Positions 9,961 to 51,090 of a stretch of 64,000 nt of DNA are shown here, one piece after another. Source of the stretch: an uncultured Hyphomicrobiales bacterium. GTDB taxonomy: Bacteria; Bacteroidota; Ignavibacteria; Kapaibacteriales; UBA2268. The stretch lies in assembly GCA_964634885.1 (NCBI GenBank), contig CAZWLN010000009.1:17735-81734 (forward strand), written 5' to 3'. Within the stretch, counting starts at the first letter, position 1; the number at the start of each line of letters is the position of its first letter. Below the pieces are notes generated by a model, which had not been told where the DNA came from, made no database searches, and saw only the letters and a program-made list of their open reading frames with translations. The position numbers and the translations under genes are program-made.

Positions 9961-10004
9961 CGAGCCAACAGCCGGACTTGAACCGGCGACCTGCTCATTA
10001 CGAA
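9961..10004 (-). repeat. Left-end direct repeat (attR-like): 44-nt copy of the 3' half of tRNA-Thr, identical to 51016-51059
   Basis: cgagccaacagccggacttgaaccggcgacctgctcattacgaa found at both 9961-10004 and 51016-51059; only the right copy is a complete tRNA. Confidence 0.8.
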
Positions 10005-10069
10005 AGTTTTCCCGGAGATTTGTTAAATACACAGCTATCCTTGTTTCCCAACAATATCAGTAATCTTGA

Positions 10070-10087
10070 GGGACGGAAATGGGACGG
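10070..10087 (+). promoter_or_regulatory. 18-bp motif GGGACGGAAATGGGACGG (two GGGACGG heptamers 11 bp apart), copy 1 of 2; candidate integrase arm-type site
   Basis: Exact 18-mer also at 50873-50890, same orientation, each just inside an island end. Confidence 0.45.
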
Positions 10088-10392
10088 TTGATGCTGAGTT
10101 ATTGAAAACAACATTTGATATCAATCATTGAAAATATTTTCAAGTAAGTGAAACCTATATCTGGCAATGAGGTTATATAGTGTAATGGAAATTGAAAATA
10201 ATGAATAATAAACAAATTTATAATATTTTGTTTGTATATTTATAAAATATTTTGTATTATATTATTGGCTTGAAAATTGAAGAATAATATTTTCAATCCA
10301 TTAATATTTTAAGTAGATAGCATAGAGATTGATTGTAAAACTGTGCTATACTTTAAGTTATGAAGTACCATTAATATGTATTTGGAAAGCCA

Positions 10393-13300
10393 ATGAAAAA
10401 ATCGAATTTGATAAGAATATTAAAAGTACTTGCACTCTGTATTGCTCTTCTTATAATGCTTTATCAGCCAATTTATTCTGCTAAATTTCCCTACCCTATT
10501 ATATTTGTTCATGGAATAAGCGATAGAAATAAAAGCTGGGAAAAACTGTTCAAAGAAATTCGACCTTTATTCAATATACCATCAAATATTCCTGAAAATA
10601 ATATTTCTAATGGAATTGTTTTCCATGCGTTACTGAATGCTTCGTCATCTACGAATATATGGGGCAATAATAATGTTAAAAATGATGATGATGATGACGT
10701 TATTTACAAATTTATTGAAAACGAACAATTGCAAAATTCTGACATATATTTTATTAATTTTGATTGCTATTGGAATGAGGATTCTAAATATCCAACTCTA
10801 ATTACATACCCTGTAAAAGGGTTAAATTTAACACATCCTGGAGACAATTACTATTGTCTATATAATTTTGATTCAAAAAGTAATGAGAGTGCAGTTTATA
10901 AACAAGGATACGCTCTCAGTAAAGCAATTGATGCAGTACTCAAAGCTACCGGTTCTGAAAAAGTAATTTTAGTCGGACATTCAATGGGAGGTCTTTCAAT
11001 CAGAGAATATCTTCAAAGATATGAAAATGGAAACCCGAAATGGTGGGAGATAAATATAGGACATCATGTAGCAAAAGTTATTACAATAGGGACTCCACAT
11101 TATGGCTCTGACTTATTAAAGATTGATGCAATTGGGAATTTTATTGGTTTAAATACTATAATTACAAGATCAAAGAGTGAAGCATTACGAGATTTAAGAA
11201 AAAGCAGTGTTTATCTAAATAATAATAGTAATGATCCAAATTATGAATGTGGTGCTTTTGGTGAAGACATAATTAATTTATATTTTAATCAAGATATTAA
11301 TTGTAATGGAAATCCTCGTATTGATGATATTCCCGGTCTTAATTCACCTATTAATTTACCTTCTGATATATCTTTTACATATATTGTTTCTTCAATACCA
11401 TATTTTCAATCTGAGGATTGTGGAGATAGAGTCGTTACTAAATCTTCTCAATATGTACGTTATGGTGAATCCGATACTATAGAAACAGAAAAATACCATA
11501 ATGGTACTATTCAAAAAATTTACGAACCATATTCCTTAATACCCGGTATGAAAGCTATGTACGGAATAGAAATGGAAGATTATCTATCCATAATGAGAGC
11601 ATTGGATGAACCAAATGTACCCAAATTAGCTTTCCAACTGCACATGAATCAGGAATACAGTAATTTTGCGAACATTGGAATTTATTACAATACAGATTAT
11701 GATTACGACTGGTATAAAGTAGCTGTTAAAGGTGGTTTGATAACAATAAGATTAAGTAATTTATTACAACGAAAAGGGAGAATAGACTTTTATGAGAATG
11801 AACCAACAGATGCTAATTCAATTTATTCAAAAGAATTTGATAATTTACCTGAAACTGAAGTTGAATGTAAACCCGGCTTGATGCTTAATGAAAAGGAATA
11901 TTATATCAGGATAACTCATTATAATATAAAGGGACCTGAGGATACAGATTGCGATTGGAATAAACCTTTTACAATAACAGTTGAAGGAAAGGGTTATTTT
12001 GTTGATGTTGACTTCAGAAGCGACAAGCAAGGTGTTGTTGTTCCTAATAGTAATGTACAATTTACTGATTTATCAATAAACAATGGAAATGAGGATCTTT
12101 CATACGAATGGGATTTCGGTGATGGTACCCCAAATAGCTATTTAAAAGATCCTTCCCACACATATACAGAACCAGGACAATACTCAGTCAGATTAAAAAT
12201 AAATGCTTATGGTACAAATTTTGAAAAAACATTAAAAAATTATATCTGGGTAAATCCTCCTGACTGTCCAAATATAGTTAAAGCTGAATACTTTTTCGAT
12301 GATGATCCAGGTTTTGGAAACGCAAGTTCAATTACTTTTACCGCAGATAATTTCCAGGACATCGAATATACAATAGACCTGAGTGATGTTACTTTAGGTT
12401 TACACAGGCTTTATCTGAGAGTCATGGATGAAAACGGCAAATGGTCTCACCTCCAGTCAAGGCCAGTACTTGTTGAAAACACTGAAACCTACAGAGAGAT
12501 AACTAATGTTGAATACTTTTTGGATAGTGAACCAGGATTTGGTAATGGTACTACTATCCCAATTGGAAAAAATTTGGAAGTTAATATTTTCCCTACTATT
12601 AATCTTACAAATATTAGTGAAGGATTGCACAGGCTTTACATAAGAGCAAAGGACAATAAGGGTAAGTGGAGTATGCCTCAGTCCAGGCCAGTATTAGTTC
12701 AAAATATCGAAGAAAATAAGATTACGGATATTGAGTTTTTCTACAGACGAGACCCAGGTAAAGGACAAGGCAATAGTATTGATATTGAACCTAATTACGA
12801 AGTATTAGTTGATGACAGATTACCTTTGTACAATAGGAAATTAGGCAAAGATACGATATATATCAGAGCTAAAAATGATAAAAATGTTTGGGGGATTCCA
12901 CAAAGTGTTGAGTTTACTATTAATGATGACCTAATTGCTCCAGAACTATTATATCCAATTGCCAATGAGAAAGTTACAGCTTCAGAGATTAATTTCCAAT
13001 GGACAAACATCGGAGCAAAGAGATATGAGTTAATAGTTGATAATGACAAAGAAATGAACTCACCAGAAGTCTCAACCATCAATTTTGATACGCTTGCAAA
13101 CTTTAAAAAGTCTTCGTACAAGCTCTGCGGCAACTGGCTTTCGGATAATAAAATCTTCTGGAAAATTAAAGCTGTATTTTTCGATGGTAGGTCTTTAGAA
13201 ACACCTGTAGATTCATTTAATTACAATCCCACAAAGAATCCTCAACCTCAGTGGGCGCCTATTTATAGGGCTTATTATCAGAATGATGTCGATCACTTCT

Positions 13301-20025: not shown

Positions 20026-23000
20026 ATGAAAACAATTAAGCTTATATTGTACCTGATTATTTCCCCGTTATTATTATCTGGGACACTCTGTCTGAGCAAA
20101 ACTCCTACCGTGCAGTACAACTACGACGAACTGAACAGGTTGGTAAGAGTTGCTTACGACAACGGCTCAACACAAGTATTTAAATATGACGAATTAGGAA
20201 ATCGAATAGAGCAGATTAATCATTATGTAGGTTTTCTGCAGAAGAACAAGGCAAATCCTTTGGAAATTACCTTATATCAGTTCGAAGATATTGTTTTCCG
20301 CGGTTTGATTGGAGAAGAAGCAGGTATGATTCAAAAGAAGCAGGGTGACAATAAGGAAGTAACGATGAACCTCGATGGTGAAGTACCGGAAGTAAAAAAT
20401 TGGAAATGGATGTTCGAAGGAGATTCTTTGGTTTACGAAGGTCAGGAAGTGTATCATGCATTTTGCAGTCCAGGCAGGTTCAATGTTAAAACAATAGTTG
20501 AGTATATGGACGGTGGAATTGTTTACTACGAGAATTTCATCGATATTTCTCCGGACCTCAGAGTCAGGTCCTATGATTTGTACACATGTAAAAGCGCCGT
20601 TAATATTGAGATAAGCCCATCTGACCTTATATATTGCAATGGCGATATGCTGCCGGTAATGGCTGCCTATGGTGGTTCGGGAGAATACGATTATGACTGG
20701 TATCCAAAGGAGTCTTTGCTCAATTCTAACTCAGAAAAGCCATTGCTGGTTGTAGCAGATACAAATATTTCATTGACATTGAATGTAACCGACAAGGAGA
20801 CTGGTATTACAAGGAGCGGCATTGTTAATGTATATGTCAATCAGGAACCGGTAGTGTTGGAACAGTCCGATGATGTAGAAGTTTGCCTGGGCGAAGATAC
20901 CACATTATTTGTAAAAACAAATTATCAAAACGCTGTTTTTCAGTGGTATAAAAATGATGAGCCAATTGCAAATTCCAATGAAAATCAGTTGATTGTCCAT
21001 GATTTTAATATGTTGAATGCAGGGAAATATAGTTGCAGAGTAATGGATACGAGCTTGTATTCGTGTATTGTATTTTCCGAGGATATTGAGTTATCTAAAG
21101 TTCAGGATATAATAATTGATAGTATTCAGGAATCAGTAATCCTTTGCAATCAAAATGAATACAACTTATTTGTCAAGGCGACAGGTTCATATATTAATTA
21201 CCAGTGGCAAAAAGACGGTCATAACGTAGATAGTCCTAATTCTTCTGAGTATCTTCTAACAGACATCGATTCCAATAAAACAGGAGATTACAGATGCCTG
21301 TTAATAAATTCAAAATGTGGAGATACTACTGTCTCAGGCAATATTCGTATTGACATGGCAGTTCCTCCTGCAATAACAGTTCAACCAGAGAATCAATCAG
21401 TATGCCTTGGTGGAACATTAGCAATCCATATTGAGGCTTCAGGCGATGATCTGCTTTTTGAATGGTATAAAGATAGTGTAATGATAGATACTGATGAGAT
21501 AGCAAAGGATTTAGTTAAACATAATATAACACTTTCTGATACTGGTAAATACTATTGTAATGTCGTTAGTGATAAATGTAAAACTGTTTCCATGAGTAAA
21601 GAAGTTACTGTAAAATTGCGAGAATATCCTTCTGTTGTTGTCAATACGGACTCAGTATTAATTTGTCGGGGCAATACCCTGATACTTAAACCGAAGTCAG
21701 TTTCTGATGGTGTGTATTACCAATGGCAAATCGACAATAAAGACATAGAAAATGCATTCGACAAAGAATACCGTAATTCTCAGCTTACTCATCGGAATTC
21801 GGGATTGTACAGATGCATTGTAACTGATAGTGTTTGTGGATTCAAAGATACTTCAGATTACATTCCGGTTTATGTATACAGAAGTCCGGAAATTATAAGC
21901 CAGATTAAAGATACTGCTGTTTGTGAGGGTGACGATTTAGAATTAAGAATTGAGGCTTTTGGTGATGGATTGCAGTATACATGGAGTAAAAATAATTTCC
22001 CCATAGAGCAGTATACTGAAGGCAAGATAGTAATTAAGAATATTACTAAAGATGATGAAGGATACTATAAATGTGTTGTAGGCAGTAGCTATTGTGGCCG
22101 AGAAAATATAACTTCTAATCTGATTAATGTAAAAGTTAAATTAAAACCAGTAATAGTTGAAACACCTGAAACAAGATACGTTTCTCCGGGTTCAAATATT
22201 GAACTTAGTACCAATGCAGAAAATTGTGATAGTTGTTACTATCAATGGTATATTAACGGGAATTTAATAAACGACGAGAATGGTAAGATTGCAGGTTCAC
22301 AAACGAGTACACTGAAAATTTGGGGATTTGATGTTGAATCGCACTCAGGAGAATATTTTGTTAAAGCTATCAATGAATGTGGGTCTGATCAAAGTGACAA
22401 TTTTACAATAAAAGTAATTGATATAATATCGGAACAACCCCAAAGCAATGGTCTTTGCCTTGGTGATTCGTTTGATATTCCTGTAGTTTTGAAGAACATC
22501 CCCCCCGGTAACGAGCCTCTATTCAAGTGGTATAAAAATGGGATAGAATTACAAAATGCTAATATTAGCAACCTTACATATAGTAGCAAGATTACCTTGA
22601 ATCCTGTATCATACAATGATTCAGGCGAATATCAGGCAGAGATTGTATTAATGCCTTCAGGAATCAAGATATATTCTGAAAAAGCGAATATTTGGGTTGA
22701 AGAAAAAGCTATATTTAATGATATGCCGCCACATACAGTATGTATTGATACAATTACAGGTGATGTAATGGTTTTAGAAGTTATAGCATTTGGTACAAAA
22801 CCAATATATTATCAGTGGTATAAAGACTTGAAACCATTAGCGAATGAAACTAGCTCAATTCTTAAGGTGTATAATCCTGGAAGAAACACCGGTATGTATC
22901 AATGCAAAGCCTGGAATAACTGCAATATAAAGAATTCAGATAGTGCCTTAACTTACTTTGTGAGTGTTTATACGCCTGTTGTAGAGAATAAATCATATTT

Positions 23001-29214: not shown

Positions 29215-29232
29215 CATATAGCAGCCATTGGC

Positions 29233-33427: not shown

Positions 33428-33438
33428 GGCTTGATTAT

Positions 33439-33924
33439 TTAGTTAGTGAATAATTTGTTGAAATCCTTTATAAGCATTAGTACAAAAAATACCAATATAC
33501 TTCCAAATAATGTAATTATCTGCCATTTCAATAACTTGTATGTCCTTCTGCTGCATCTTTTTGAAATATTCCTGAATTTCTTGAAATTGTGCTCTTTGTA
33601 TCTCCGGTATTTCCATAAAGTAATTTTTGCGGTTATCCGAAAGTCTTTCAGCCGGTTGGTAACGCAGCAGATGCCAATAATTATTGAAGCCAATATAATA
33701 GATATGCCCAATAGGTAAACTATCGATTCGATAGTATTAAGGTTCAATGAGCTATCGTTCAGGACGCTCAATTCATAGCCGAGAATACCTATTGCAAAAG
33801 TCAGGAACAAATTGATTGTAAACGACAATTGTTTGATGCGGTAGTCCTGCCACCTGGTAAAGGACTCTTTTTTACTCTTTGTTTCTTCCACTGTTAACTT
33901 CTCTTCATTAGTTGATTGATTCAC
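33439..33924 (-). CDS. Small membrane protein (3 predicted TM helices) embedded in the defense array
   Basis: 161-aa ORF with three hydrophobic stretches; overlaps hsdS stop by 4 nt. Confidence 0.5.
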   Translation of the reverse strand: MNQSTNEEKLTVEETKSKKESFTRWQDYRIKQLSFTINLFLTFAIGILGYELSVLNDSSLNLNTIESIVYLLGISIILASIIIGICCVTNRLKDFRITAKITLWKYRRYKEHNFKKFRNISKRCSRRTYKLLKWQIITLFGSILVFFVLMLIKDFNKLFTN

Positions 33925-37329: not shown

Positions 37330-40300
37330 TTATTTTCCTATGCTATTAATTGTTAACCTATTGTCTTTGAGTATGGTAAAAATCTCTTCCACCATAGTTT
37401 CATTGTTGAAAATGCCTTCAACACCTTCAGTGTCCAAAGAAGTAAATGGCGATTCGTACAGTTTTTCAAGTTTAATACACCCATACATGCCGATATAGTT
37501 CTTAAGCATATTCAGAAAAGCTATTTGATTTCCTGATAGCTCTGGATGATTTGCTACAAAGCTCTCAAAATAAGAATTTACAGCTTCTGCTTCAAGACCA
37601 ATAATTCTTCGTATTGCCAAATCCAGGTACCCCGCGGTGTCGGGATAGAATTCATAAAGAATATTAATATCAACATTTGGATATTTTGTGAGAACAAGGG
37701 AAACAAGTGAGTTAAGCTCATCCTGAGTAACAAAGGCGCCTTTTTTAATCTTTTGTAAAACAACGCTTTCATTGAACATCTGACAGAGAGCTTTTTCCAC
37801 CCTTTCTTTATATTTAATCATTTCCATACCCGGCATTTTGGGTATGTATTCCTCATGTTTAACCTTATCGGGATTCTCTGTAATATCGATTGTTTTCGAT
37901 TCGCTTATTAGTGGTACTTCAGACTCTTTGAACTGCATCAATCCACGCAATTCTTTTCTGATTTCTTCCAGATTGTTAAATTGTATCGTATCCCAATATT
38001 CAGCACTCAATACTTTTTTAATTACATCAGATTTTGTTCTTACCTGGTATAAATTCCTTTGTAGTAATGAAACTTCATTTATGATATCATCTCTGAAACT
38101 CTCAAACAAATTTGTATTTAGAATGAATTCTGTTTGTGATTGAGTAAGAAGAATATCAAACTTTACTGCTTCAATATGGCCAGCGATATTAATCCACCTC
38201 ATCAATGGAGCTATTTCATTCTTTAAAATATTAATAGTAGACTGATCGAATCGTTCAATTACACCATCTTGCTTCATCAGGTTGACTTCTCTCCACCTAT
38301 CTTTGACGGCAATAGATTTCAACGAATCCAGTGTATTAATATCTTTTTTAATGAGATCGACAATATATTTGAATTCATCTTGTTGAAACTTTTCAAGTGC
38401 GGTTTCGGCAAGTTTAATTCTCTGCAAAAACAATCTCTGGGATAAAGACATTGAGTCACTCACTTCTGCCGGTTTACAATTCAGATCGAACCATTCAAAA
38501 TTGCCCCAGTGGTCGAAAATTCTGAATTTTGTTTTATCAACCCCAAGCCCTAATAAATTAGGGCATAGCCTTGTCCCTCTTCCAATCATCTGCCAGAATT
38601 TGACGTATGATTTGATGGGTTTTGCAAATACAAGATTGACGACTTCAGGAATATCAATCCCGGTATCGAGCATATCTACCGATATGGCTATGGACAGCAA
38701 ATTGTTATTGCCTTTACCTTTGAAATCATCAATTAATTGTTCTGCTCGTGGGTCATAGTTATCTATAACCTGACAAAATTTACCGCCATACTGAGGAAAC
38801 ATTTCATTGAACAGGCTTTGCAATTGAAGAGCGTGTTTATGGCTCCGTGCGAAAATTATTGTTTTACCCGGGAGACTATCGGTCGCATCTTTAATTCCTT
38901 TCTCCATCAGATTTCTTATAATCTCACGGTTTGTATCTTTGTTGTATATAAATTTGTCTATATCATTAGAAGTATAATCGAATTCTTCAGCATTGGCAAC
39001 CTGGTCTTCGAGTTCTTTTTTTTGCTCGATGGTCAAATTGGCGTACTTTATACCTTCTCTTAAAAATTCAGTGGTATGATTAAACACTTCAAATGGCACC
39101 AAATATCCTTCTTTGACAGCCGTTTCATAATCGTAATTTGCAGTGGGGTCTTGATTGTCGCAATTAAACATAGAAAAAGTATTTCTGGCAATCAGGTCGA
39201 CAGGAGTAGCAGTTAACCCAATTTGATAGGAATCGAAGTAATCGAAAATATCCTTATAAACATTATAAATACTTCTGTGAGATTCATCGGCAATAATTAA
39301 ATCGAAGAAACCAACATCAAAAGTATCATAATACTTCAACATGGCTGGGTAGGTCGATAAATAAATTCTTTTATCTCTATTTTTATAGGTTCTGCTATTT
39401 ACAGTTGTCAGCGGAGTTGAAGGGATAAAATCGGTGAAAGCATTCTTGGCTTGTTTCCTCAATTCCCTTCTGTCGCATAGAAATAGAATTCTCTTAACCC
39501 AGTTCCCTTTCAATAGAGTGTCGCAAAGTGAAACGGCGACTCTTGTCTTACCAGTACCTGTGGCTTGAACAATAAGCGATTTTCTATTTTTCTGAGCGAA
39601 CTTTTCAATAACTCTTTTTTGTGCTTCCATTTGATAGAGCCTGTTAGCTATTGAAGGATTTGCTTCCAGATTGAGACTGTCTGTTCTGTTTTCCCTTTTA
39701 AAATGTAGGTATGTCAAACTATCTTTTGAATAAAACCCATGGATTTTTCTTGGTGGTTCGTTCTCTTTATCATTCCAAATATAAATATCAAACCCATTGG
39801 TATAAAATATTACAGGTCTTTTCCCAAACTTTCTTTCAATAGCATCAGCATAGAGTGTAGCTTGTTTTTTACCAATGTCAGGGTCTTTTGAGGTTTTTTT
39901 TGCTTCGATTACTGCCAATGGCTTGCCATCGTCACCAATGAGTACATAATCAACGAACCCTTTCCCAGTTTCCGTTGGCTGTCCGTCAACTTCATATTCT
40001 ATTTCAATATCGGAATTTTCCGATGAACCATCATTAAATGCCCACCCTGCAATAGAAAGTTGTTTGTCGATAAGGAATTGTCTTGTTTGCTCTTCATTCA
40101 GATCGAGTAAAACAGCAACTGATTTGCCTTTATTTTTAATTGTTTCGCTCTCAATATCGGTTAAAGGTGTTATACTGGCTTTTTCTTCCTTTTTATTTAA
40201 ATTTTGAATTAGTTGTTCAATGATTAATTCTTTTTTATTTAACTCTGCCTGCAATTTTGGCTTATTAATATCAGCCATTGATTTTGTTTTATCAGGCAAA

Positions 40301-40704
40301 ATGAAACTATTTATATTCTGGGGCTCGGTCTGATAAAATACTATCATTAGCCACTTAGAAATAATATATGCAATATTAAGAAGCTTTTTGGCTTCTGTTT
40401 CATTTACCGATTCACCATGAGCCGCTTTATTTCCGGACAATCTCAGAAGGTGAAGATTTGATATAATAGAACTCTGAATTTGTTCATTTTTGTTTAGAGC
40501 CTCTAATAAGGAGAAAAGATTTTTTTCTTCTAAATACTCCAATTTCAAATTATTGTATAGAACCCTTACATACTTTTCTGCAAAAGTTCTTAATTTAATA
40601 GCAGTTACAGATGAATCCAGAAGCAGATACTGTTCAGCCAATTCTCCCAGAGCTGATAATTCTGGGAGTTTTTCTTTTAAAAAAATAAAATTGTTGTCTG
40701 CCAT
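37330..40704 (-). CDS. hsdR: Type I restriction enzyme R subunit with N-terminal DUF4145-like domain
   Basis: Helicase motifs [11 protein letters not shown] (Walker A) and IIADESHRS (DEAH); 1124 aa; immediately upstream of hsdM. Confidence 0.85.
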
Positions 40705-40738
40705 TTAATCCCTTTTTTTTACAATCCATTTAAGGTAT

Positions 40739-40754
40739 TACAATTGGTATGCCA
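40739..40754 (-). promoter_or_regulatory. Weak sigma-54-like -24/-12 element TGGCAT-N5-TTGTA about 35 bp upstream of hsdR start (imperfect -12: GT instead of GC)
   Basis: Reverse complement of 40739-40754 reads TGGCATACCAATTGTA; spacing to hsdR ATG compatible with a promoter. Confidence 0.25.
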
Positions 40755-41401: not shown

Positions 41402-44400
41402 TTACTTTACTATTACAAAGCTCTTACTGATCAATTGTGTCGGAGTTCTCAGTATCACATAATACATACCAGACTCAAGAGTATCGGTATTAAATTGCAT
41501 CGATGACTCTCCCGGCTTCGGTATACCCGAAAATAGTGTCTTGATTTCCTGAGCAGTCGAATTGAACAATTTAATAGTGGTGTAGCCTTCTTCAAGAATG
41601 TTATAGTCAACTGTTACCTTTTCATTTGCCGGATTAGGAGTAATGCTTGTGATGCTTACCTTATTTTCAGAAGCAGTTACGAGCCTGGAGCCGCCTTCTC
41701 GGCATATTTCGAGCCTGATTAAACCATTATTCGTTTTGTAAATAAAACCTTTTGCCAAGCCCAAAATGCTTGTCGAATCGAGATTGAAAGCTATTGTTGT
41801 TGAATCCCTGTCACCGAGGCCTATTTCAAAAGGTATGTAGATTTTATCTCCCAGGAATATGTTCTTTGGTAAGAATAGACTTAGCTTCTTACCGAAATAA
41901 TTTGTCTCATTGAAGTGTTGACCGGCTCGAACAACACCGCTAATATCATGATCTGACATTATTGTTGCATTGAATGAAACCTCCGTATTTATTCCGTCAG
42001 ATACATCATACAAATCTTTGACAGGCATAGAAAGGTAAAACGGTACTTGCACTATATCCCCTGGCTTTGCGGTAATCGTATCAGACTTCAGTACAATCTC
42101 ATAGAGCTTGTCTAACAAGGAGAATACTGCAATGCTGTCCTGTGTATTGCATTGCTTAGTGAAAATATAGGAGCCTTTGAAACTAATATCTTCGCCAACA
42201 AATTGAACAGTAACATCTGAACTGCCACCAGCCGGTGTAGGATTGGGTTCAATTTTGCTAATAACAAACCTTGTATCGTTAAATTTAACTGGTGGATTGG
42301 GCCAATAAAGAGCTGTGTTGCCATAATTGCTTATCTTGCACTGAACCTGCCTCTGTTCACCGGTTTTGACGTCGTAAGCCAAAACAGAATCGGGGGTTAC
42401 CTCCCAATCATAGACAAGGTAATTGCCGCAAATACTCATTTCCTTAGGCGAATCGGGGGAATTGTAATAAATCATCAGTTTACTGCACACTTTGCCGGTA
42501 TCGACAGGAGTGAAGCGGATTGTCAGTTTCTTATCTTCGTGGCTTTTCAGGACGAATGGATAGGACAGGTTGTCACTGATTCTAAAGATATTATCATTCG
42601 GAGAAAACACCAGCGAATCAATACGAGCATCTGTTTTTTGGTAATTGACAATCGTTGTGAATGACTGCTCTTTGTAATCGGTTGTGTCGCACGGTTTCAC
42701 CAATTCTATAGTCTGGCCGTAACCTGCCTGGAGTTCGCACTTGACGCCTTCGCCCTGGAATGTCACTATCTCGGGAGAGCTTATACCTTTGTGATAAAAA
42801 GCATACTGGCAGGTGCTTATTCCCTGCTGGACTGGTTTGTACTCTATCCTGATATTGTGCGTATCTCCGGCTGCTATTACAAAGCTCCCGCCGCCTGAGA
42901 CTATCTCAAACTGGGCATCATCGGGGCCGAGTTCAACTGTCGAGTCAATTTGAGAGTCCGAAGCTCCCCTGTTGTAGAGTACTGCCGCTAAGGTGTCAAC
43001 TTTTTCGCCGAGGCAGACATTGATGAAATTATATGCCGGGGTTATGTTTTGGATGTTGCAGTCAAGGGCTTCTCCGGTTATATCTTTAGGAATAACGCCA
43101 TAATTGCTGTAAATATTAATTTGTGCAGTTTTGATGCCCGGAGTCTTAGGCTGGAAGCTGAATTTCACTTTCAGCTTTTCTTTTGGCTTCAGTGTAACCG
43201 GCAATGTTTGATGGACAAGTTCAAAGTCAGCCGCATCAATCCCGGAAATTCCTATTGAATCAATCCTTACATCGAAAACATCATTGTTAACAATGTAATT
43301 ATCAATTATCTTCTCTTTTGGTTCTGTCCAGTTGGCGCAGTGCTGGAGCATATCTACATCACTTGTCGTAATCTTTGGGAGAATGATTGAGAACAGGGTG
43401 TCGGACTTGTCAAGGTTTTCTATGTCTTTAACCCTGAAAATCCTAATTGTACCGTCCTCACCTCCACCTGCAATCCAGTTACTGTTTGGATGCCATGATA
43501 TATAAACTCTCCAATAATGAAATGGACTTATAAACTTAATATATTTATAACTAATTGCATCAATTATTTGAATATTACCATCACTTCCACCTATAAATTT
43601 CCCATCAGGACTATAGGCTATTGAATATCCTGAATATCCTGGAAAATCTAAATGTGTAAGTATTAATCCTGATTCCGTATCCCAAATAGTAATTCCAGTA
43701 TGCCAACCTCCACCTGCAACTTTATTCCCGTCGGGACTCCAGGCTACTGAATTAACATCATCATCATGTCCGATTAATGTCATTAGTTCGGTACCTGTTT
43801 TTGCATCCCAGATTATTATTGTCGAATCATAACTTCCGCTGGCAATTCTACTGCCGTCGGGACTCCAGGCTACTGAATTTACATAACGATCATGTCCCGT
43901 TAATGTCATTAGTTCAGCGCCTGTATTTGCATCCCAGATTTTTATTGTCCCTTCATAACCTGCGCCTGCTATTATTCTACTACCATCGGGGCTCCAGGCG
44001 ATAGAATTTACCCAATCATTATGTCCTGATAGTGTCATTATTTCGGTACCTATTTTTGCATCCCAGATTTTTATTGTCTCCCTACTTCCACTTGCTATTC
44101 TACAGCCGTCGGGACTCCATGTTACTGAAATATCATAACCATGATGTCCCGTGAATGTCATTAGTTCGGTACCTGTTTTTGCATCCCAGATTTTTATTTC
44201 CGAAAAACTTCTACTTGCTATTCTACTGCCGTCGGGACTCCATGCTACTGAATTAACCCAATCATTATGTCCCATTAATGTTATTAGTTCGGTACCTGTT
44301 TTTGCATCCCAGATTTTTATTGTTTCATCACCACTACCACTTGCTATTCTACCGTTGTCAGGACTCCAGGCTAATGAATTTACATAACGATCATGTCCCG

Positions 44401-46654
44401 TTAATGTCATTAGTTCGTTGCCTGTTTTTGCATCCCAAATTTTTATTCTTGCATCATCACTACCGCTTGCTATTCTACTGCCGTCGGGACTCCAGGCTAC
44501 TGAATTAACATCATCATTATGTCCTATTAATGTCATGATTTCCGTGCCAGTTTTTGCATCCCAGATTTTTATTGTTTCATCATCACATCCACTTGCTATT
44601 CTACTGCCGTCGGGACTCCAGGCTACTGAATTAACCCAATCATCATGTCCCATTAAGGTCATGATTTCCGTACCTGTTTTTGCATCCCAGATTTTAACTG
44701 TAGAATCATAACTACCGCTTGCTATTCTACTGCCGTCGGAACTCCAGGCTACTGAACAAACATTACTATTATGTCCCTTTAATGTCATTAGTTCGGCGCC
44801 AGTTTTTGCATCCCAGATTTTTATTGTCTCCCTACTTCCACTTGCTATTCTACTGCAGTCAGGACTCCAGGCTACTGAAAATTCATTACCATATATATCA
44901 TTTAATGTGATTATTTCACTACCTGTTTTTGCATCCCAGATTTTTATTGTCTCATAACTTCCGCTGGCTATTCTACTGCCGTCGGGACTCCAGGCTACTG
45001 ATCTAATTTCATAATCATGACCGCAAAGAGTGTCTATTACCTTAGCCGTACTTAAGTCCCAGATATAAAGGCAGTCTGAACCACCTGCGCTTACTAATTT
45101 TGTACCGTCAGGGCTAATATCTATACATTTAACAATGCCATAACCAAATATCTTTCCATCAACAAGCTTTTGTGGGTTGTCGTCCTTGTACACTTTAATA
45201 AGGCAACTGTCGGACTGCAGGTAAGGCAGCTTCCAGGTGTAGTGCAAACCGCTTGCCGCGTTGGTAATCAGCTCCCAGGTTTTACCCCCGTCGAGGCTGT
45301 ATTCTATTGACACAGTGTCGTCCATCCTGCCTTCCCAGTAAATGGTAGTGTCGGTTCCGGCAAGCAGCTTTTCGAACCCGTTTGGCGATTCAACGATTAT
45401 ACTGTCCGATGCGAGTGGGTCGTAACTCAGGAAAGAAACGACATGATTGCCGCAAAGTTCTTTTTCAATAATAATATTTCCGAACTCAGCCGAATCGACC
45501 TGTGGATTGTATTTTACCCGGAACGACCTTTCTTCTCCTGTTCCCAGGGTAAATGGCGTATTCGTGCTGCCGACAATGGAAAACGCAGGATTGGTTCGGG
45601 TAATATTTGTAATTGTAACAGGGTAGTACTCATTTTTCAAAGTAAAGGTAACAGTCGTATCGCCTGAACCTAAAGGTATCCTTTCGAACACAAATGAACC
45701 GGGAGATACATTAGTAACGATTCTCGATTTGGAATAGGCCCAGTACCTTAACGAAGCCTGGGCCGGCAAACTTTTAAGATTGACTGAAACATTACGGTAT
45801 TCATTGCATGTAGGTTCGCTTTTCCAGATAATCTCGCATCCGGCGCCACCGCTGCAACCGGATATACCGGCTAATTTTTTAAAAACCGACGTTGCTTCCT
45901 GAGCATTAGAGACATGGAAGTAAAACCCGTCGGTCATTGAAGTAATCGCATCGATGAACTCATTGGCCTGTCCGTTTATTATTACAACAAAAATCTTCGC
46001 TTTCAGTTCATTTGCCTTTTTAATAATTTCCTGTTCATTGCCTTCCGACATGCCGTCGGTAACCAGAATGATTCTTCTTGCATACTTTGCTCTCTCTGCC
46101 ACGAGCAATGCCCCGTTCAGCGGATCGATCAGGGCCGCATCGAATTTTGTGCCCCCGTTAGCTGTTAATGATTCAAATGACTTCTTCAACTGGCTTTTGT
46201 CAGTTGAAAAATCATTGACAAGGAAGTTCTTATGGTTAAAGGCAACAATTGCACATTCGGGACCTCCCGCAGGCAACATATCTATATAGATTTCGGCAGC
46301 CAGCTTTTCCTGGGGTAGCTTCTGCCCGCGTGTCGAACCGGAGATGTCCATTACCAGAATGCCGGAGTAGTTTCCACCGGGACACATCCCTCCTTCAGAA
46401 CAGTACACGCTTACAATCTCTGCTTTCCTGCCGTCTTCAACGATTTCAAAGTCATTGGGCGAAACGTCGAAAACCAGGTTGTCGTCTTTGTCGAAAGCAT
46501 AGAAATTAGCGCTGGTATAGGGGAAACCATAGGGCAGCACTTTAAAAACAGAAATCTGCTGTGCATTTGCCGATGCAATGCCAAGTATTGCGAATAATAG
46601 ATGCAAAAGCTTTTTCATACTATTCCCTATATTAATATTCAATTGGATTTTCAA
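41402..46654 (-). CDS. Giant vWA-domain / WD40-repeat (about 14 blades) / Ig-like protein with T9SS C-terminal sorting domain; true start probably M at 46620 (MKKLLHLLFAILGIASANA)
   Basis: vWA MIDAS (VMDISGST...TDGMSEG); tandem WSPDGSRIASGS...IKIWDAKTG repeats; CTD ...SGMYYVILRTPTQLISKSFVIVK. Confidence 0.8.
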   Translation of the reverse strand: MKIQLNINIGNSMKKLLHLLFAILGIASANAQQISVFKVLPYGFPYTSANFYAFDKDDNLVFDVSPNDFEIVEDGRKAEIVSVYCSEGGMCPGGNYSGILVMDISGSTRGQKLPQEKLAAEIYIDMLPAGGPECAIVAFNHKNFLVNDFSTDKSQLKKSFESLTANGGTKFDAALIDPLNGALLVAERAKYARRIILVTDGMSEGNEQEIIKKANELKAKIFVVIINGQANEFIDAITSMTDGFYFHVSNAQEATSVFKKLAGISGCSGGAGCEIIWKSEPTCNEYRNVSVNLKSLPAQASLRYWAYSKSRIVTNVSPGSFVFERIPLGSGDTTVTFTLKNEYYPVTITNITRTNPAFSIVGSTNTPFTLGTGEERSFRVKYNPQVDSAEFGNIIIEKELCGNHVVSFLSYDPLASDSIIVESPNGFEKLLAGTDTTIYWEGRMDDTVSIEYSLDGGKTWELITNAASGLHYTWKLPYLQSDSCLIKVYKDDNPQKLVDGKIFGYGIVKCIDISPDGTKLVSAGGSDCLYIWDLSTAKVIDTLCGHDYEIRSVAWSPDGSRIASGSYETIKIWDAKTGSEIITLNDIYGNEFSVAWSPDCSRIASGSRETIKIWDAKTGAELMTLKGHNSNVCSVAWSSDGSRIASGSYDSTVKIWDAKTGTEIMTLMGHDDWVNSVAWSPDGSRIASGCDDETIKIWDAKTGTEIMTLIGHNDDVNSVAWSPDGSRIASGSDDARIKIWDAKTGNELMTLTGHDRYVNSLAWSPDNGRIASGSGDETIKIWDAKTGTELITLMGHNDWVNSVAWSPDGSRIASRSFSEIKIWDAKTGTELMTFTGHHGYDISVTWSPDGCRIASGSRETIKIWDAKIGTEIMTLSGHNDWVNSIAWSPDGSRIIAGAGYEGTIKIWDANTGAELMTLTGHDRYVNSVAWSPDGSRIASGSYDSTIIIWDAKTGTELMTLIGHDDDVNSVAWSPDGNKVAGGGWHTGITIWDTESGLILTHLDFPGYSGYSIAYSPDGKFIGGSDGNIQIIDAISYKYIKFISPFHYWRVYISWHPNSNWIAGGGEDGTIRIFRVKDIENLDKSDTLFSIILPKITTSDVDMLQHCANWTEPKEKIIDNYIVNNDVFDVRIDSIGISGIDAADFELVHQTLPVTLKPKEKLKVKFSFQPKTPGIKTAQINIYSNYGVIPKDITGEALDCNIQNITPAYNFINVCLGEKVDTLAAVLYNRGASDSQIDSTVELGPDDAQFEIVSGGGSFVIAAGDTHNIRIEYKPVQQGISTCQYAFYHKGISSPEIVTFQGEGVKCELQAGYGQTIELVKPCDTTDYKEQSFTTIVNYQKTDARIDSLVFSPNDNIFRISDNLSYPFVLKSHEDKKLTIRFTPVDTGKVCSKLMIYYNSPDSPKEMSICGNYLVYDWEVTPDSVLAYDVKTGEQRQVQCKISNYGNTALYWPNPPVKFNDTRFVISKIEPNPTPAGGSSDVTVQFVGEDISFKGSYIFTKQCNTQDSIAVFSLLDKLYEIVLKSDTITAKPGDIVQVPFYLSMPVKDLYDVSDGINTEVSFNATIMSDHDISGVVRAGQHFNETNYFGKKLSLFLPKNIFLGDKIYIPFEIGLGDRDSTTIAFNLDSTSILGLAKGFIYKTNNGLIRLEICREGGSRLVTASENKVSITSITPNPANEKVTVDYNILEEGYTTIKLFNSTAQEIKTLFSGIPKPGESSMQFNTDTLESGMYYVILRTPTQLISKSFVIVK

Positions 46655-48770
46655 TTATTATTTCTACGGTCCTGGAATAGAACCTGCCTTCAGGTATTGA
46701 GTTGTCGAAAAGCTTAACATTGCTGCCAACACCCTTGAACTTTGCCTCCCAGAATTTGATGTTCCTGTATGTAGTTTCTGCCCTTACCGATGACAGGAAC
46801 TGATTCTGTTCATCAGAGCCTGTAATGTCGGTAAAACCTGTTATTTCAACTTTCGAATTTATATTAATCCTGGATTTGATATAATTGACAATGCTTAAGT
46901 TCCTGTCGGTAATTTCTCCGGAATTGAAATCAAAGAGAATCAGGTTATATTTTTCAATTTCTTTATCAGCAAGTTTTTCAGATTGCTTTTGTTTGATTGA
47001 AGTAACCTCAAGAGGAACCGACTTTTCATCGGTAATTACTTTCTTCTTTCTTTTGTCCTGGACAGATAGCTGATACTTCATTGCACCGGTGGCAAAGTCA
47101 ATTTGGTTTTTCATGTCAATTAGATTAATATCAAAATATTGTTTTACATCTCTATCAATTTCAATAGGCCTTAAAGCGTTATTATTGAAATTAATATTAA
47201 TATAGCAATATTCAACGCCGATTTCTGACTGAACATCAGCTTGGAACCTTATTACCTCCGGATTGAAAATATTCTTGATATCAGTAATAGTAATGGGTTC
47301 CAAAATCTGTGGGGAATCCGGAATAATTTCAACTCTGCGGTTTTCTGCAATTTTCTCAGTTTGATCAACCGGAGTAGAAGGTTTTTCCGGCAGTCCTCTA
47401 GCAATAATTCTGATTCTGCTGCCATCAATCCCCCAAACAGAAGTAAAATACCGTTTGATGGTTTCAGCTCTTGAGCGGGACAATTCTGTATTGCCTTTTT
47501 CAATTCCCACTCCACTGTTGCACCCTACAAGTGAAATTGAAGTGTTGGGATTCATCTTAAGCCGATAGCCGACAATGTTAAGTAAATCATAATAAACGCT
47601 AATTGTTTCAAACTTGCTGATATTCTTAATATCGAAATAGTTCGAATTCTTAATCATATTATATCTATATGGTATATCTGAGGAATTTTCATCAAAGAAA
47701 ACATAGTTAAGCAGTGGATGCATTTGAGTGAACTGGAACTCTTCTATTTTAATTCTGTCAACCGGCTTGACAGCAATGGATGAATCAACTGTAAATACAC
47801 GAATTGAAGCAGAAAGTGCAAAATCTCTAGGTGTGAAAACCGTATCAGTACTACTTATAATTTCTTCCACATAAATCGTATTCTCTACTTGCGTTTCGTT
47901 ACTATCAATAAACTCTTTTCCTTTCTTGAAAGTATTTTCCAAAACAAAGTTATCCGTCAACACGACCGTATCATTTCTGTATATTTTCTTATACTCGTAA
48001 ACAGGAGGCTTCCATGGTTCGGGAGAATATACAATTGATAAACCTGCATAAAGTGTATTGATCTTCCAGGAGTATCCATCCAAAAAGTTGTTCAATCCAT
48101 ACCTGTATCCAATCAGAGGGCTAATAAGCAGGGTATTTTTTTTATTTAGTGGAAAATCATACATTACAGCAACATTAGCATGCAATAGAACAGATTGAAC
48201 GCCTTCAATTTCTCCTGAATTCAGGTTGCGTGTCATACTATTTGTATTATTGCCATTTTCGTCAACAAAAGTAGCCATACCAGAAGGTTTGGTAATCCTT
48301 TCTTCCTGGGAATAATCCTTCTGAATTGGTATTGACAAACTTATTCCTGAGATAATAAACAACCTGTCAAACAACTTTAAAGAAATCTTGGGTTCAAATG
48401 ACAGCATAGATAATTCTGCATCAATTATATGTTGAAATTCTCCGACATTCATACCTCCATTATAGTAGATGGTTGTTGGCTCCAAAGCCTTTAACTGGCC
48501 GTTGAGATTGCTGTACACCAGATTTGTTCCAAGGTAAAAGGTATTGAATATAGCATGATCATAACTAAGACCGATGAAAAATGACTGTCCGGATCCATTT
48601 CCGAATTTCGGACAACAATTAGGAACACCAGGCAACGCCCTGAAGTCTGTGTAATGTTGATTGAAGTTCACGCCTCCGATTACACCGATTCGCATATAGT
48701 CATTGCAAAAAAGTAAAGTACAATTAAAAATTGTAAATACAACTATTTGAAACAATACTTTCATTAACAT
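46632..48770 (-). CDS. OmpA-family outer-membrane protein, 712 aa, paralog of 27076-29214
   Basis: Signal peptide; NCCPKFGNGSGQSFFIGLSYD block; C-terminal GFTDITGSDEQNQFLSSVRA...IPEGRFYSRTVEIII. Confidence 0.65.
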   Translation of the reverse strand: MLMKVLFQIVVFTIFNCTLLFCNDYMRIGVIGGVNFNQHYTDFRALPGVPNCCPKFGNGSGQSFFIGLSYDHAIFNTFYLGTNLVYSNLNGQLKALEPTTIYYNGGMNVGEFQHIIDAELSMLSFEPKISLKLFDRLFIISGISLSIPIQKDYSQEERITKPSGMATFVDENGNNTNSMTRNLNSGEIEGVQSVLLHANVAVMYDFPLNKKNTLLISPLIGYRYGLNNFLDGYSWKINTLYAGLSIVYSPEPWKPPVYEYKKIYRNDTVVLTDNFVLENTFKKGKEFIDSNETQVENTIYVEEIISSTDTVFTPRDFALSASIRVFTVDSSIAVKPVDRIKIEEFQFTQMHPLLNYVFFDENSSDIPYRYNMIKNSNYFDIKNISKFETISVYYDLLNIVGYRLKMNPNTSISLVGCNSGVGIEKGNTELSRSRAETIKRYFTSVWGIDGSRIRIIARGLPEKPSTPVDQTEKIAENRRVEIIPDSPQILEPITITDIKNIFNPEVIRFQADVQSEIGVEYCYININFNNNALRPIEIDRDVKQYFDINLIDMKNQIDFATGAMKYQLSVQDKRKKKVITDEKSVPLEVTSIKQKQSEKLADKEIEKYNLILFDFNSGEITDRNLSIVNYIKSRININSKVEITGFTDITGSDEQNQFLSSVRAETTYRNIKFWEAKFKGVGSNVKLFDNSIPEGRFYSRTVEIIIENPIEY

Positions 48771-49126
48771 AAAACCTTCCTGGCTATTTATAAAGTAATT
48801 ATATTTTCAAATTTTCAATATGTCTTTTTACTTTGTCAATTTATCTTAGAGTATTCACAAATAATTGGCATGCCAAAAGATAGTTCTTAATATCGGAATT
48901 TGTAAGTTAGTAAAAACCAACAAATTCTACACCCCTTATTTGTTTAACAAACGTAAGATTTTTCCCCTAAATATTCAAATATTTAAATTATTATTTTGTA
49001 TTATAATAATCTCCCCCAGAACATTGGACAAAAAGAAAAGATATTTATTGAAATGCTTCATGATATTGCATTGAAATATAGCAAAAATGACTGAAAATGC
49101 CCATCAGGTTACAATTAAAAGCATGT

Positions 49127-49200
49127 TTCGTGCTTGTATTGTGCTTGTATCGTGCTTGTATTGTGCTTGTTTCGTGCTTGTATTGTGCCTATTTTGTGCA
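49127..49200 (+). repeat. Tandem array of 11-bp units (YGTGCTTGTAT x6-7) with further phased TGTGC motifs to about 49275
   Basis: cgtgcttgtat tgtgcttgtat cgtgcttgtat tgtgcttgttt cgtgcttgtat tgtgcctattt tgtgcattatt; helical-turn periodicity. Confidence 0.6.
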
Positions 49201-49701
49201 TTATTGGGTCTGAAAAGTGGATCATTAGTTCCAAATTTGTGCCAGAATTGTGCATATTTTGTGCACGTACAGTGCAATTTTATAACTTTTTGTATTGAAT
49301 CTATGCAAATATATGTAGATTATCACTGAAAATGCAGTCTCAATCAATAAAATTGAGTTGTTTTTGTATTGAATTACTTCATTGGTGCATGATAAAACCT
49401 AATCTCTTTATGATGGCTGATTAATGATATGGTCGTTTCTGGCTAAATACACAATTGGAGCCTGAAAAGCCAGGCTTTGTAACTGAAATCAAAGCTCTCG
49501 CGGAGAGAGTGGTTTGCAGGAGCCTGAAAAGCTATGCTTTGTAACTAAAATCAAAAAGTCTGACTTTATAATCATTGCTACCTCTAAATATTATATGGGG
49601 ATTTATAAAAATATTTTCCGATTCATTTCTTCTTACAAAATTATTTCCATTAGTTAAATGAACGAAATTCATTTTTAAAATATTAATTGATAGGATAAGA
49701 C

Positions 49702-50769
49702 ATGGCAAGAAAGAAAAGGAGCCATACACCTGGCTCAATCTACAAGAAAAATAACAAACTTGTCATTGAATTGAAAGGCAAAAAGCTTTATACCGGCTTG
49801 AACGATACACCTGAAGGTAGAGAGAAAGCTAAATTGATGAAGGAACAAATGTATGAGCAATGGCTGATTAACAGAGGGACATTGCCGGATCATACGAAAG
49901 ATTTTATATCAGCAAAGGAAGCTTTCTTGGAATTTGTAAGTCATCTTGAGCGAAAACAACGGAGTCAGGCTACAATCAGAAATTACAAATTAGCTTTCAA
50001 GCTGATTTACAAAGAAGATTATCTAATAAACCAGAGAATAAACAATGAATACAGGATTGTGTTTGATATTCGGAGATTTGTTGACACTACAAATGTTGGA
50101 AATGTCAGCATAAACAGTTATCTCCGGTGCATTAGGTCTTACCTAAACTATTGTTATACTCAGGGATATATCAACAAAATAGATGTAATGAATTTGTTTG
50201 GGAAACCAGAAAAAGAAAAGAAACCAATTGCTTACAACGATAGAGATTTGGAAAAGATTCTCGAATACTTTTACGAAACTGATGAAGAATTTGCTTTATG
50301 GATTAGCTTTATGAGATTGACCGGATCTCGAAGTAAAGAATCAATCACCCTTACTTGGGACCAAGTGGATATTGAAAAGAGGCAAATACTGATCTACAAC
50401 AAAATCAATACAGAAAAATCTGAGATGATAATAGTATCAGATAGAGTTTTGAATATCCTCGAAAGGTTATTAGTTCTCTCAACCCAAAGGCCGAAAAATA
50501 AACATAAACTATTTCGTTGGACTTATAATGGTTTGTCCCGGCTTACCCGCAGATTCCATGATGCAGAAAAACTATTGGGAATAGAACCGACCAATGGATG
50601 TTTCCATAAGCTCAGGAAAGCTTTTGCAACCGAAATAATTGAAAATGACCTGTCGATATGGGAAGTCAAAGAACTTATGCGCCACGCTAATATCAATACT
50701 ACTCTGAAGTATTACAAAGAGAAGAACACTTTGAAACTTGTGGATGCCTTGAATAGAATCCACCATTGA
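49702..50769 (+). CDS. Tyrosine-type site-specific recombinase (phage-type integrase)
   Basis: C-terminal catalytic region with HKLRKAFAT (HxxR) and LMRHANINTTLKYY (catalytic Tyr); located about 250 bp from tRNA-Thr and transcribed toward it. Confidence 0.9.
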   Translation: MARKKRSHTPGSIYKKNNKLVIELKGKKLYTGLNDTPEGREKAKLMKEQMYEQWLINRGTLPDHTKDFISAKEAFLEFVSHLERKQRSQATIRNYKLAFKLIYKEDYLINQRINNEYRIVFDIRRFVDTTNVGNVSINSYLRCIRSYLNYCYTQGYINKIDVMNLFGKPEKEKKPIAYNDRDLEKILEYFYETDEEFALWISFMRLTGSRSKESITLTWDQVDIEKRQILIYNKINTEKSEMIIVSDRVLNILERLLVLSTQRPKNKHKLFRWTYNGLSRLTRRFHDAEKLLGIEPTNGCFHKLRKAFATEIIENDLSIWEVKELMRHANINTTLKYYKEKNTLKLVDALNRIHH

Positions 50770-50872
50770 GTTTTTACGATACACTTTTCTTATCAAGAAT
50801 TATTCAATTAAGCAATATGGCTATTTCTGCTTCTATTGAAAGGTAGTTGCTATTTGCATTGACTATTTATCG

Positions 50873-50890
50873 GGACGGAAATGGGACGGG
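50873..50890 (+). promoter_or_regulatory. 18-bp motif GGGACGGAAATGGGACGG, copy 2 of 2
   Basis: Identical to 10070-10087; between integrase stop and tRNA. Confidence 0.45.
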
Positions 50891-51015
50891 AAAAATATTT
50901 TAAATGACAAAAAATAGCTTTAAATGGCAAAATTCTCTGTTCCCCTTCCAACGACATTGAAAACGGGAACACAGCAATTATGCTTGAATTGCAAGGAGTT
51001 ACCTCTTTTGCCTTT

Positions 51016-51059
51016 CGAGCCAACAGCCGGACTTGAACCGGCGACCTGCTCATTACGAA
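51016..51059 (-). repeat. Right-end direct repeat (attL-like) overlapping the 3' half of the intact tRNA-Thr
   Basis: Identical 44 nt to 9961-10004. Confidence 0.8.
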
Positions 51060-51090
51060 TGAGCTGCTCTACCAACTGAGCTATGTTGGC
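51018..51090 (-). tRNA. tRNA-Thr (anticodon CGU), 73 nt, CCA not encoded
   Basis: Manual cloverleaf: acceptor GCCAACA/UGUUGGC, D-arm GCUC-AGUUGGUA-GAGC, anticodon arm GCUCA-UUCGUAA-UGAGC, T-arm GCCGG-UUCAAGU-CCGGC, discriminator U. Confidence 0.9.

Follow-up and report, generated by a model that had tools for sequence, protein, structure and literature searches.

Does the AT-rich interior of a 64-kb stretch of contig CAZWLN010000009.1 (assembly GCA_964634885.1), from an uncultured Kapabacteria-like bacterium, represent a mobile element that entered the chromosome at a tRNA gene, and if so, where does it begin and end and what inserted it? The whole stretch of 64,000 nucleotides that was analysed is referred to here as the window. 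The interval between two copies of a direct repeat, one of them lying in the tRNA-Thr(CGU) gene, is very probably a genomic island integrated into this gene, an element inserted by its own lambda-Int-type tyrosine integrase. The features at its ends, including the two copies of the attachment (att) site, are listed below.

9958-10004, minus strand: left att copy, integrase-distal, a displaced 3' fragment of tRNA-Thr(CGU) and the left end of the island (47 of 47 positions identical to 51013-51059)
51013-51059, minus strand: right att copy within the intact tRNA, on the integrase side, the right end of the island (repeat search, blastn)
51017-51090, minus strand: intact tRNA-Thr(CGU) gene, the integration target (ARAGORN, Rfam)
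49702-50769, plus strand: tyrosine integrase gene (int), 355 aa, three domains, with R210, K234, R305, H328 and Y338 (Pfam, PHROGs, alignment, AlphaFold2 model)
9921-9958, no strand assigned: hairpin with a perfect 16-bp stem (arms 9921-9936 and 9943-9958, 100% complementary) and A and T runs on both sides

The tRNA-Thr(CGU) gene was the sole tRNA identified in the window by ARAGORN (DNA anticodon CGT) and scored 72.8 bits in Rfam against a gathering score of 29. The repeat search, with which blastn agreed, identified an exact direct repeat of 47 nt shared by the two att copies. The initial annotation had described a 44-nt att duplication here, and while its exactness and direct orientation stood, its length did not, as three further nucleotides were matched on the low-coordinate side. 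Within the tRNA the repeat began at position 32, where the anticodon loop (TTCGTAA) starts, and extended through the 3' end and 4 nt into the downstream spacer; the identity therefore began exactly at the anticodon loop and ran 4 nt past the end of the tRNA. A 47-nt exact match within 64 kb cannot be chance. No tRNA 5' half was found beside the left copy by ARAGORN or by inspection of the sequence, hence this copy is a displaced tRNA fragment and not a second gene. The initial annotation had named a second tRNA gene or pseudogene at the left boundary as one of the findings that would overturn its proposal, and this was not borne out. Further att-like remnants, inside the island or elsewhere in the window, and a tandem-island structure were not found by blastn. 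With one att copy counted, the island measured 41,055 bp.

The integrase gene pointed toward the tRNA with 247 bp between its stop codon and the tRNA 3' end, in agreement with the distance of about 250 bp and the orientation given in the initial annotation. Its product matched PF00589 at 1.5e-18 and the phrog_1 integrase family at 1e-34, and scored 38-88 bits on the Xer and integron NCBIfam models against cut-offs of 220-335. An exhaustive HMMER search returned full-length matches to the integrase in 42 cluster representatives at E<=1e-30. Across an alignment of 42 family members R210, R305, H328 and Y338 were invariant, K234 was at least 90% conserved, and an N-terminal motif, PGSIy..KLyIK..GK..TGL.DTP.GR, was also conserved; the catalytic set of the lambda-Int type (R...K...HxxR...H/W...Y) was therefore present. 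The phage and plasmid record collections that were searched held integrases no more than 27% identical to that of the island, IMG/VR held no relative of it, and int formed a singleton cluster at 90% identity.

The AlphaFold2 model of the integrase had a predicted local distance difference test (pLDDT) score of 91, with values above 90 over residues 11-50. Its N-terminal domain (residues 12-57) was composed of strands 12-16, 19-24 and 27-34 and a helix at 37-57, and was followed by a helical core-binding domain and then the catalytic domain. The model thus predicts a separate N-terminal domain of the arm-binding type, a three-stranded sheet plus helix. Full-length lambda Int (1z1b_A) was aligned to the model over 368 columns (E 2e-10) at an identity of approximately 14-15%, and XerA and the Tn1549 Int were likewise among the top structural matches.

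Taken together, an intact tRNA gene (tDNA) stood at one end of the interval, a cognate 3' fragment in the same orientation downstream marked the other end, and a PF00589 tyrosine integrase of neither the Xer nor the integron class lay in between. This is the combination described by the Islander signature, in which an intact tDNA, a displaced 3' fragment and an adjacent integrase delimit an island and an 'A' class denotes islands with an anticodon-centred attP, the att site of the element (PMC4383910).

We propose that the island began as a circular element of approximately 41.06 kb, which its own integrase recombined into the tRNA-Thr(CGU) gene of the chromosome. The attP core of this element would have copied the tRNA from the anticodon loop to the 3' end, and because the identity begins exactly at the anticodon loop, the crossover is placed there, at the 5' edge of the identity block, and the site would be anticodon-centred. 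The copy carried by the element would then complete a functional tRNA beside int, and the original 3' half of the chromosomal gene would have been displaced by 41 kb, still abutting its old terminator hairpin. The hairpin at 9921-9958 looks like a bidirectional terminator serving the flank gene at 9216-9893 (plus strand), and would have been the ancestral terminator of the minus-strand tRNA before the insertion. The payload brought in by such an event would comprise cell-surface and secreted proteins and a composite anti-phage operon.

The central and catalytic domains of the integrase probably bind the core sites, and for the small N-terminal domain candidate sites were identified on both sides, together with other non-coding repeats near int.

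10070-10087, plus strand: first copy of the 18-mer GGGACGGAAATGGGACGG, candidate arm-type site, beginning 66 bp beyond the end of the left att copy (motif count)
50872-50889, plus strand: second copy of GGGACGGAAATGGGACGG, candidate arm-type site, ending 123 bp before the right att copy (motif count)
50891-50932, no strand assigned: 20-bp tandem repeat in 2.2 copies, directly after the second arm-type motif (tandem-repeat search)
49121-49206, no strand assigned: tandem array of 11-bp (or 22-bp) units upstream of int, GTGCTTGTATT repeated approximately 6-8 times (repeat search)

The 18-mer occurred exactly twice in the window and not once in 100 shuffles. Each copy consisted of two GGGACGG heptamers spaced 11 bp apart (GGGACGG-N4-GGGACGG), which corresponds to one helical turn. 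Judged by their position on both would-be attP arms, the two copies are candidate arm-type sites, and the small N-terminal domain of the integrase probably binds these paired motifs. The 20-bp tandem repeat beside the second copy is possibly a site for an accessory protein. A non-coding, repeat-rich stretch of 930 bp lay upstream of int and included the array of GTGCTTGTATT; additional TTGTGC repeats extended the region of this array up to 49275, and two 37-nt repeats, each with a small hairpin, were observed at 49457-49555. No Rfam family matched the repeats at 49121-49206 or 49457-49555, which could be iteron-like sites, regulator-binding sites or a small RNA.

The boundaries were further supported by independent assemblies, as the same organism was present in the JGI metagenome 3300022666 and in the Logan assembly SRR6476076. 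Each junction was crossed by a separate JGI contig, the left one at 100% identity and the right one at 99.99%, and in both cases the contig ran on into long unique sequence to either side. The Logan contigs that cover the left flank and the island's right end broke off after 30 nt of the repeat, which is what assembly at k=31 should give for a repeat of 47 nt. The left JGI contig of 34,878 bp reached only to approximately 43.9 kb, judged from its size, and the right JGI contig ended at 44666 within a series of 126-bp WD40 repeats.

An artefact or coincidence, with the left 47-mer being a tRNA pseudogene of independent origin or the contig a chimera formed in metagenome assembly at a conserved tRNA sequence, is highly improbable. 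The contig is indeed metagenome-derived, and tRNA k-mers shared between organisms do break assemblies, as in the Logan contig L002, which stopped at a 31-mer from tRNA U8. Both junctions were nevertheless spanned by separate contigs with long unique sequence, the identity passed the end of the tRNA by 4 nt and stopped exactly at the anticodon loop, and the integrase and the paired arm motifs were located where the attP arms should be, while the flanks were alike in composition (r = 0.93) and the interior unlike them. The contig L002 was also considered as an alternative junction, since it ended 6 nt into the repeat with its last possible unique 31-mer starting at tRNA U8, and was rejected because its break is explained by the tRNA-Thr of another organism with a different acceptor stem.

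Base composition changed at the same positions. The island had a GC content of 0.353 compared with 0.475 in the left flank and 0.46 in the right flank. The GC content at third codon positions (GC3) fell at the left boundary from 0.58 in the last flank gene to 0.28 in the RHS gene, the first of the island, and rose at the right boundary from 0.38 in int to 0.62 in an mntR-like gene. Tetranucleotide usage correlated at 0.93 between the two flanks and at 0.59-0.79 between island segments and the flanks, such that GC, GC3 and tetranucleotide usage all shifted at the att copies. The AT-rich interior that had been noted initially was therefore confirmed in that all three measures broke at the boundaries, with the reservation that low GC was not unique to the island, as one gene outside it (56474-59656), encoding a type IX secretion system (T9SS) protein, had a GC content of 0.328 and a GC3 of 0.30. 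This gene was part of a second AT-rich patch at 55548-59656 consisting of the T9SS sortilin/BNR-like protein and an Rpn-family PDDEXK_2 gene annotated as a 'putative transposase'; no flanking repeats were found around this patch (55.5-59.7 kb), which may be a separate acquisition. The AT-richness of the island may reflect the usual bias of mobile DNA. With the intact tDNA, the 3' fragment, the adjacent non-Xer integrase and sharp compositional boundaries at both repeat copies, the central proposal of the initial annotation, a tRNA-integrated island, was upheld.

The mntR-like protein beside the tRNA placed the organism among Kapabacteria/Ignavibacteria-type metagenome-assembled genomes (MAGs), with a best full-length identity of 67% in a scan of GTDB representatives and 78-81% on two cut contigs. 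In many of the related MAGs tRNA-Thr(CGU) followed mntR directly or after one gene, and since this pair is conserved the right-hand context of the island is ancestral. Downstream of the tRNA the relatives carried housekeeping or unrelated genes (polyphosphate kinase, pyridoxal phosphate-dependent decarboxylase, PspC, sigma factor). The left-flank genes of the window were kept after the tRNA in no relative, and left-flank synteny was lost in all of them, so their unoccupied tRNA genes do not amount to a true empty site. No second tRNA fragment was present within 10 kb of tRNA-Thr(CGU) in the relatives, and no relative of the integrase within the same distance, except in the MAG L017. In L017 (5268-6354) the orthologous tRNA had a different tyrosine integrase (26% identity, PF00589 1e-17) lying in the same orientation at a distance of 66 bp, and the gap between them held a pair of GCTACGATT repeats spaced 11 bp apart. 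As a different integrase was found at the same tRNA, tRNA-Thr(CGU) looks like a recurrent integration hotspot.

Relatives of the island integrase itself were found in other settings. The closest of those described here, at 64% identity (L087), lay behind an overlapping helix-turn-helix (HTH) gene and an 829-aa phrog_28855 protein; one at 33% identity (L088) was accompanied by an S24 peptidase, HicA and HTH_36; and in L089 two members of the integrase family stood side by side. The L088 contig ended 69 bp after the integrase stop codon (6160-6244) in TGCACCCGAAGGGATTCGA, which is like the reverse complement of a tRNA acceptor stem and T-arm. If this end is a tRNA, that member of the family also abuts a tRNA 3' end. 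None of the accessory genes of these relatives, pseudogene traces included, was found in the window, thus the island shares only the integration module with the relatives of its integrase.

The following observations weigh against the reading of a tRNA-Thr(CGU)-integrated element as given above. No empty attB, the unoccupied chromosomal site, was found in any genome or metagenome searched, the organism being a singleton in public data. The exact 70-nt attB pattern gave 0 matches in JGI metagenome contigs, and among metagenome contigs no relatives of the left-flank protein turned up. When the proteins of both flank genes were looked up by exact match, the only matches were to this organism itself, in a single JGI sample and a single Logan sample, and pyrG and mntR each formed a singleton cluster at 90% identity. 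Continuity between approximately 43.9 and 44.7 kb, through the 126-bp repeats, rests on the single long contig and the uninterrupted 1750-aa frame that crosses it. The tRNA-Thr 3' halves of the relatives differed at 3-6 positions while the two att copies of the island were 100% identical, so the previous host must have had the same tRNA sequence, which is a poor fit with a distant donor; judged by this identity, the island probably circulated among hosts with the same tRNA. GC3 within the island was heterogeneous, from 0.20 to 0.50, hence its content is mosaic and need not have come in one event. Finally, there was no excisionase (Xis) or other recombination directionality factor (RDF) candidate and no small HTH open reading frame (ORF) near int.

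The heterogeneity in GC3 bears on whether the cargo arrived with the integrase at all. A small integrase module might have entered through the tRNA, with the RHS/T9SS block and the defence operon accumulating later at the hotspot, and this composite origin is possible but rather unlikely. It would account for the spread in GC3 among island genes (0.20 in the MIT_C gene, 0.40 in the WD40 gene, 0.475 in hsdM and 0.50 in the RtcR-like gene), for the arrangement of the island into two opposed transcription blocks, where plus-strand secreted and surface genes are followed by a minus-strand block, for the presence of an OmpA-like homologue with an SBBP-like neighbour elsewhere in the chromosome of the MAG L029, and for the different integrase at the same tRNA in L017. 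Against it, neither an att remnant nor a second integrase or a transposase was found inside the island, and the whole interval was compositionally distinct from both flanks.

A search for mobility functions addressed the class of the element. The 18 island ORFs of at least 100 aa contained no type IV secretion system, coupling-protein or relaxase domain in Pfam, which sets the island apart from an integrative and conjugative element as the initial annotation had stated, and no capsid, terminase, portal, tail or lysis domain, which sets it apart from a prophage. PHROGs matches of the unannotated ORFs were confined to the integrase and families of unknown function, and no replication or excisionase domains were detected in the island. 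The lack of any relaxase domain likewise leaves it without the mobilisation relaxase that an integrative mobilizable element may carry. In the absence of transfer and replication genes the element is an integrase-only island, and without excisionase or transfer genes it would depend on helpers or be stranded. It may excise but not transmit itself.

Such a gene content is also what a fixed remnant would have, that is, an island integrated as described that has since lost its regulatory, excision and transfer functions and has kept int by chance or in another role. This is quite possible, with the balance somewhat against it. In its favour, searches of the island recovered neither RDF/Xis nor replication, transfer or phage genes. 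The small elements that house the relatives of the integrase encode HTH/cI-like repressors, an S24 peptidase, HicA and a large phrog_28855 protein, of which the window has no trace, and where an HTH gene overlaps int in those relatives, the island has the repeat-rich 930-bp stretch. On the other hand, the int ORF was intact with all catalytic residues present, and the att copies (47/47) and arm motifs (18/18) were identical where neutral decay would be expected to add differences. For some integrases, a dedicated RDF is not needed for excision. Perfectly matching att copies and arm motifs, together with intact catalytic residues, speak for a recombination module that may still be functional in the integrated island.

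Compared with known systems, this is a clear but ordinary tRNA-targeting island and offers nothing conceptually new on how such islands work. It resembles Islander-type islands (Hudson, Lau & Williams 2015, PMC4383910; Williams 2002) in its same-orientation 3' fragment and the tyrosine integrase beside the tDNA, and the 'A' class in particular (PMC4383910) in that the identity block spans the anticodon loop and everything 3' of it in the tRNA, and in its typical size of 41 kb. Unlike those islands (PMC4383910), it has an uncultured Kapabacteria-like lineage as host, no mobility module, and an integrase with only approximately 40 cluster-level relatives at E<=1e-30. With lambda Int and Tn1549-type heterobivalent integrases the predicted three-domain layout is shared, as are the catalytic R, K, (H)xxR, H and Y and short repeated motifs on both arms one helical turn apart, which here are candidate arm sites; it differs in an identity of only approximately 14-15% and in that no Xis or IHF (integration host factor)-site evidence was found. 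A further parallel is the 10K island of Riemerella anatipestifer in tRNA-Arg, a small and likewise non-conjugative island in a T9SS-bearing bacterium of the FCB (Fibrobacteres-Chlorobi-Bacteroidetes) group, for which the integrase and a 53-bp att were enough for precise integration and excision (PMC6764341). That island differs in its tRNA, its integrase and its size (10 kb versus 41 kb), and in that its activity has been demonstrated by experiment (PMC6764341).

The value of the locus lies in a mobile-element insertion mapped to single-nucleotide att boundaries in a poorly sampled, uncultured Kapabacteria-like lineage of the FCB group. An integrase from a small uncharacterised clade, together with its att and candidate arm sites, could be of use as a tool for site-specific integration in organisms of this kind.

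The minus-strand block of the island included eight tightly packed or overlapping genes at 29233-40754, which appear to form one operon from hsdR to the RtcR-like gene on the basis of their spacing. In the order of transcription these were as follows.

37330-40704, minus strand: HsdR, restriction subunit of a type I restriction-modification (R-M) system, with an N-terminal DUF4145 (PADLOC REase_I 4e-289)
35833-37329, minus strand: HsdM, type I R-M methyltransferase (PADLOC MTase_I 1.5e-174)
35072-35833, minus strand: 253-aa ORF between hsdS and hsdM (only a sub-threshold DUF6942 match)
33921-35075, minus strand: HsdS, type I R-M specificity subunit (PADLOC Specificity_I 1.3e-86)
33439-33924, minus strand: 161-aa ORF between the NsnB-like gene and hsdS (no family match)
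31784-33427, minus strand: NsnB-like ABC/AAA_15 ATPase with a DUF3696 tail (PADLOC NsnB 1.2e-47)
30777-31784, minus strand: 335-aa protein with a C-terminal MIT_C/phospholipase D (PLD)-like domain (PF16565 1e-5, 25.9 bits, cut-off 25)
29233-30780, minus strand: RtcR-like CARF/sigma-54 AAA+ activator, the last gene of the operon (Sigma54_activat 1e-44; PADLOC RtcR_PspF2 CARF_AAA_HTH 1e-78)

The R-M and defence array named in the initial annotation was thereby substantiated, as PADLOC recovered a complete type I system of HsdR, HsdM and HsdS. The PB-PLD1 effector of the Menshen system has been described as MIT_C-like (PMC12065111), and by its domain match the 335-aa protein resembles a Menshen NsnC with a PB-PLD1-type effector. 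As in Menshen defence islands (PMC12065111), an NsnB-like DUF3696 ATPase was followed by a PLD/MIT_C-like protein among R-M genes. Unlike in those islands (PMC12065111), hsdRMS, the pair and a CARF sigma-54 activator are combined in a single operon, in which no NsnA (ParB-DUF262) gene was found; it thus falls short of the Menshen set of NsnA, NsnB (an ABC ATPase with DUF3696) and NsnC (inPIN with an effector). A sigma-54-like element, TGGCATACCAATTGT, was located at 40740-40754, 36 nt upstream of the hsdR start, and a scan for sigma-54 promoters gave 47 matches versus 37 expected, which was not significant. The rpoN gene of the host lay within the window at 1145-2884.

This operon of type I R-M, NsnB-PLD and CARF sigma-54 genes was the more unusual detail of the island. 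It is an improbable idea that the island is still active and belongs to an as yet undescribed family of integrase-only elements, found in Kapabacteria/Ignavibacteria-type bacteria, which use tRNA-Thr(CGU) as a hotspot and move surface/T9SS proteins with a composite defence operon, where the CARF sigma-54 activator would make the R-M system and the NsnA-less Menshen-like pair inducible by a nucleotide or RNA-damage signal. Secreted/T9SS proteins and anti-phage systems travel on the same island in this Kapabacteria-like lineage. The genes for secreted and surface proteins were as follows.

10393-16860, plus strand: RHS-repeat protein, 2155 aa (domain searches)
16857-20006, plus strand: three tandem paralogues of 339, 368 and 338 aa with signal peptides, conserved N- and C-termini and a variable middle (repeats, alignment)
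20026-23268, plus strand: 1080-aa protein with multiple Ig domains and a C-terminal T9SS type A sorting domain (TIGR04183 33.5 bits, cut-off 23)
23305-27075, plus strand: 1256-aa SBBP beta-propeller/PKD-like/choice-of-anchor-D-like protein (domain searches)
27076-29214, plus strand: 712-aa protein with an OmpA-like C-terminus (domain searches)
41402-46654, minus strand: 1750-aa secreted protein with VWA, WD40 propeller, Ig-like/choice-of-anchor-D and T9SS type A sorting domains (TIGR04183 24.7 bits, cut-off 23)
46632-48770, minus strand: 712-aa protein with two OmpA-like domains (domain searches)

The RHS protein contained a lipase-like alpha/beta hydrolase, PKD, DUF5648, DUF6531, RHS/YD repeats and an Rhs-associated core, with only approximately 85 residues after the DPEGK end of the core. 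The 'RHS toxin' of the initial annotation was accordingly retained as an RHS protein with an Rhs-associated core, but its role as a toxin was unproven given the tail of approximately 85 residues, and the paralogues downstream were not obvious immunity genes. These three paralogues had no Pfam, NCBIfam or PHROG match. Their N-termini were near-identical and their C-terminal tail was identical (GSKQNGLKVKFKAKSNK), and the middles were divergent with insertions and deletions. Behind the RHS gene, they may form a cassette of polymorphic surface proteins.

T9SS cargo, also expected from the initial annotation, was recognized by a type A sorting domain above the cut-off in two island proteins. The DNA of the 1750-aa gene consisted in part of approximately 10 head-to-tail WD40 units of 126 bp, located at 43.7-45.0 kb, with additional, more diverged copies. 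A WD40-propeller protein of 696 aa was also encoded in the core flank (6948-9038) and shared 37-38% identity with the island protein across the repeats. The two 712-aa OmpA-like proteins were paralogues with 30% identity over their full length, and each adjoined a very large secreted repeat protein. In the Kapabacteria MAG L029 (1087-3602), a 36%-identical OmpA-like homologue likewise followed an SBBP-like gene, elsewhere in the chromosome. An OmpA-like gene and a large repeat-protein gene may thus form a conserved pair of cargo plus anchor.

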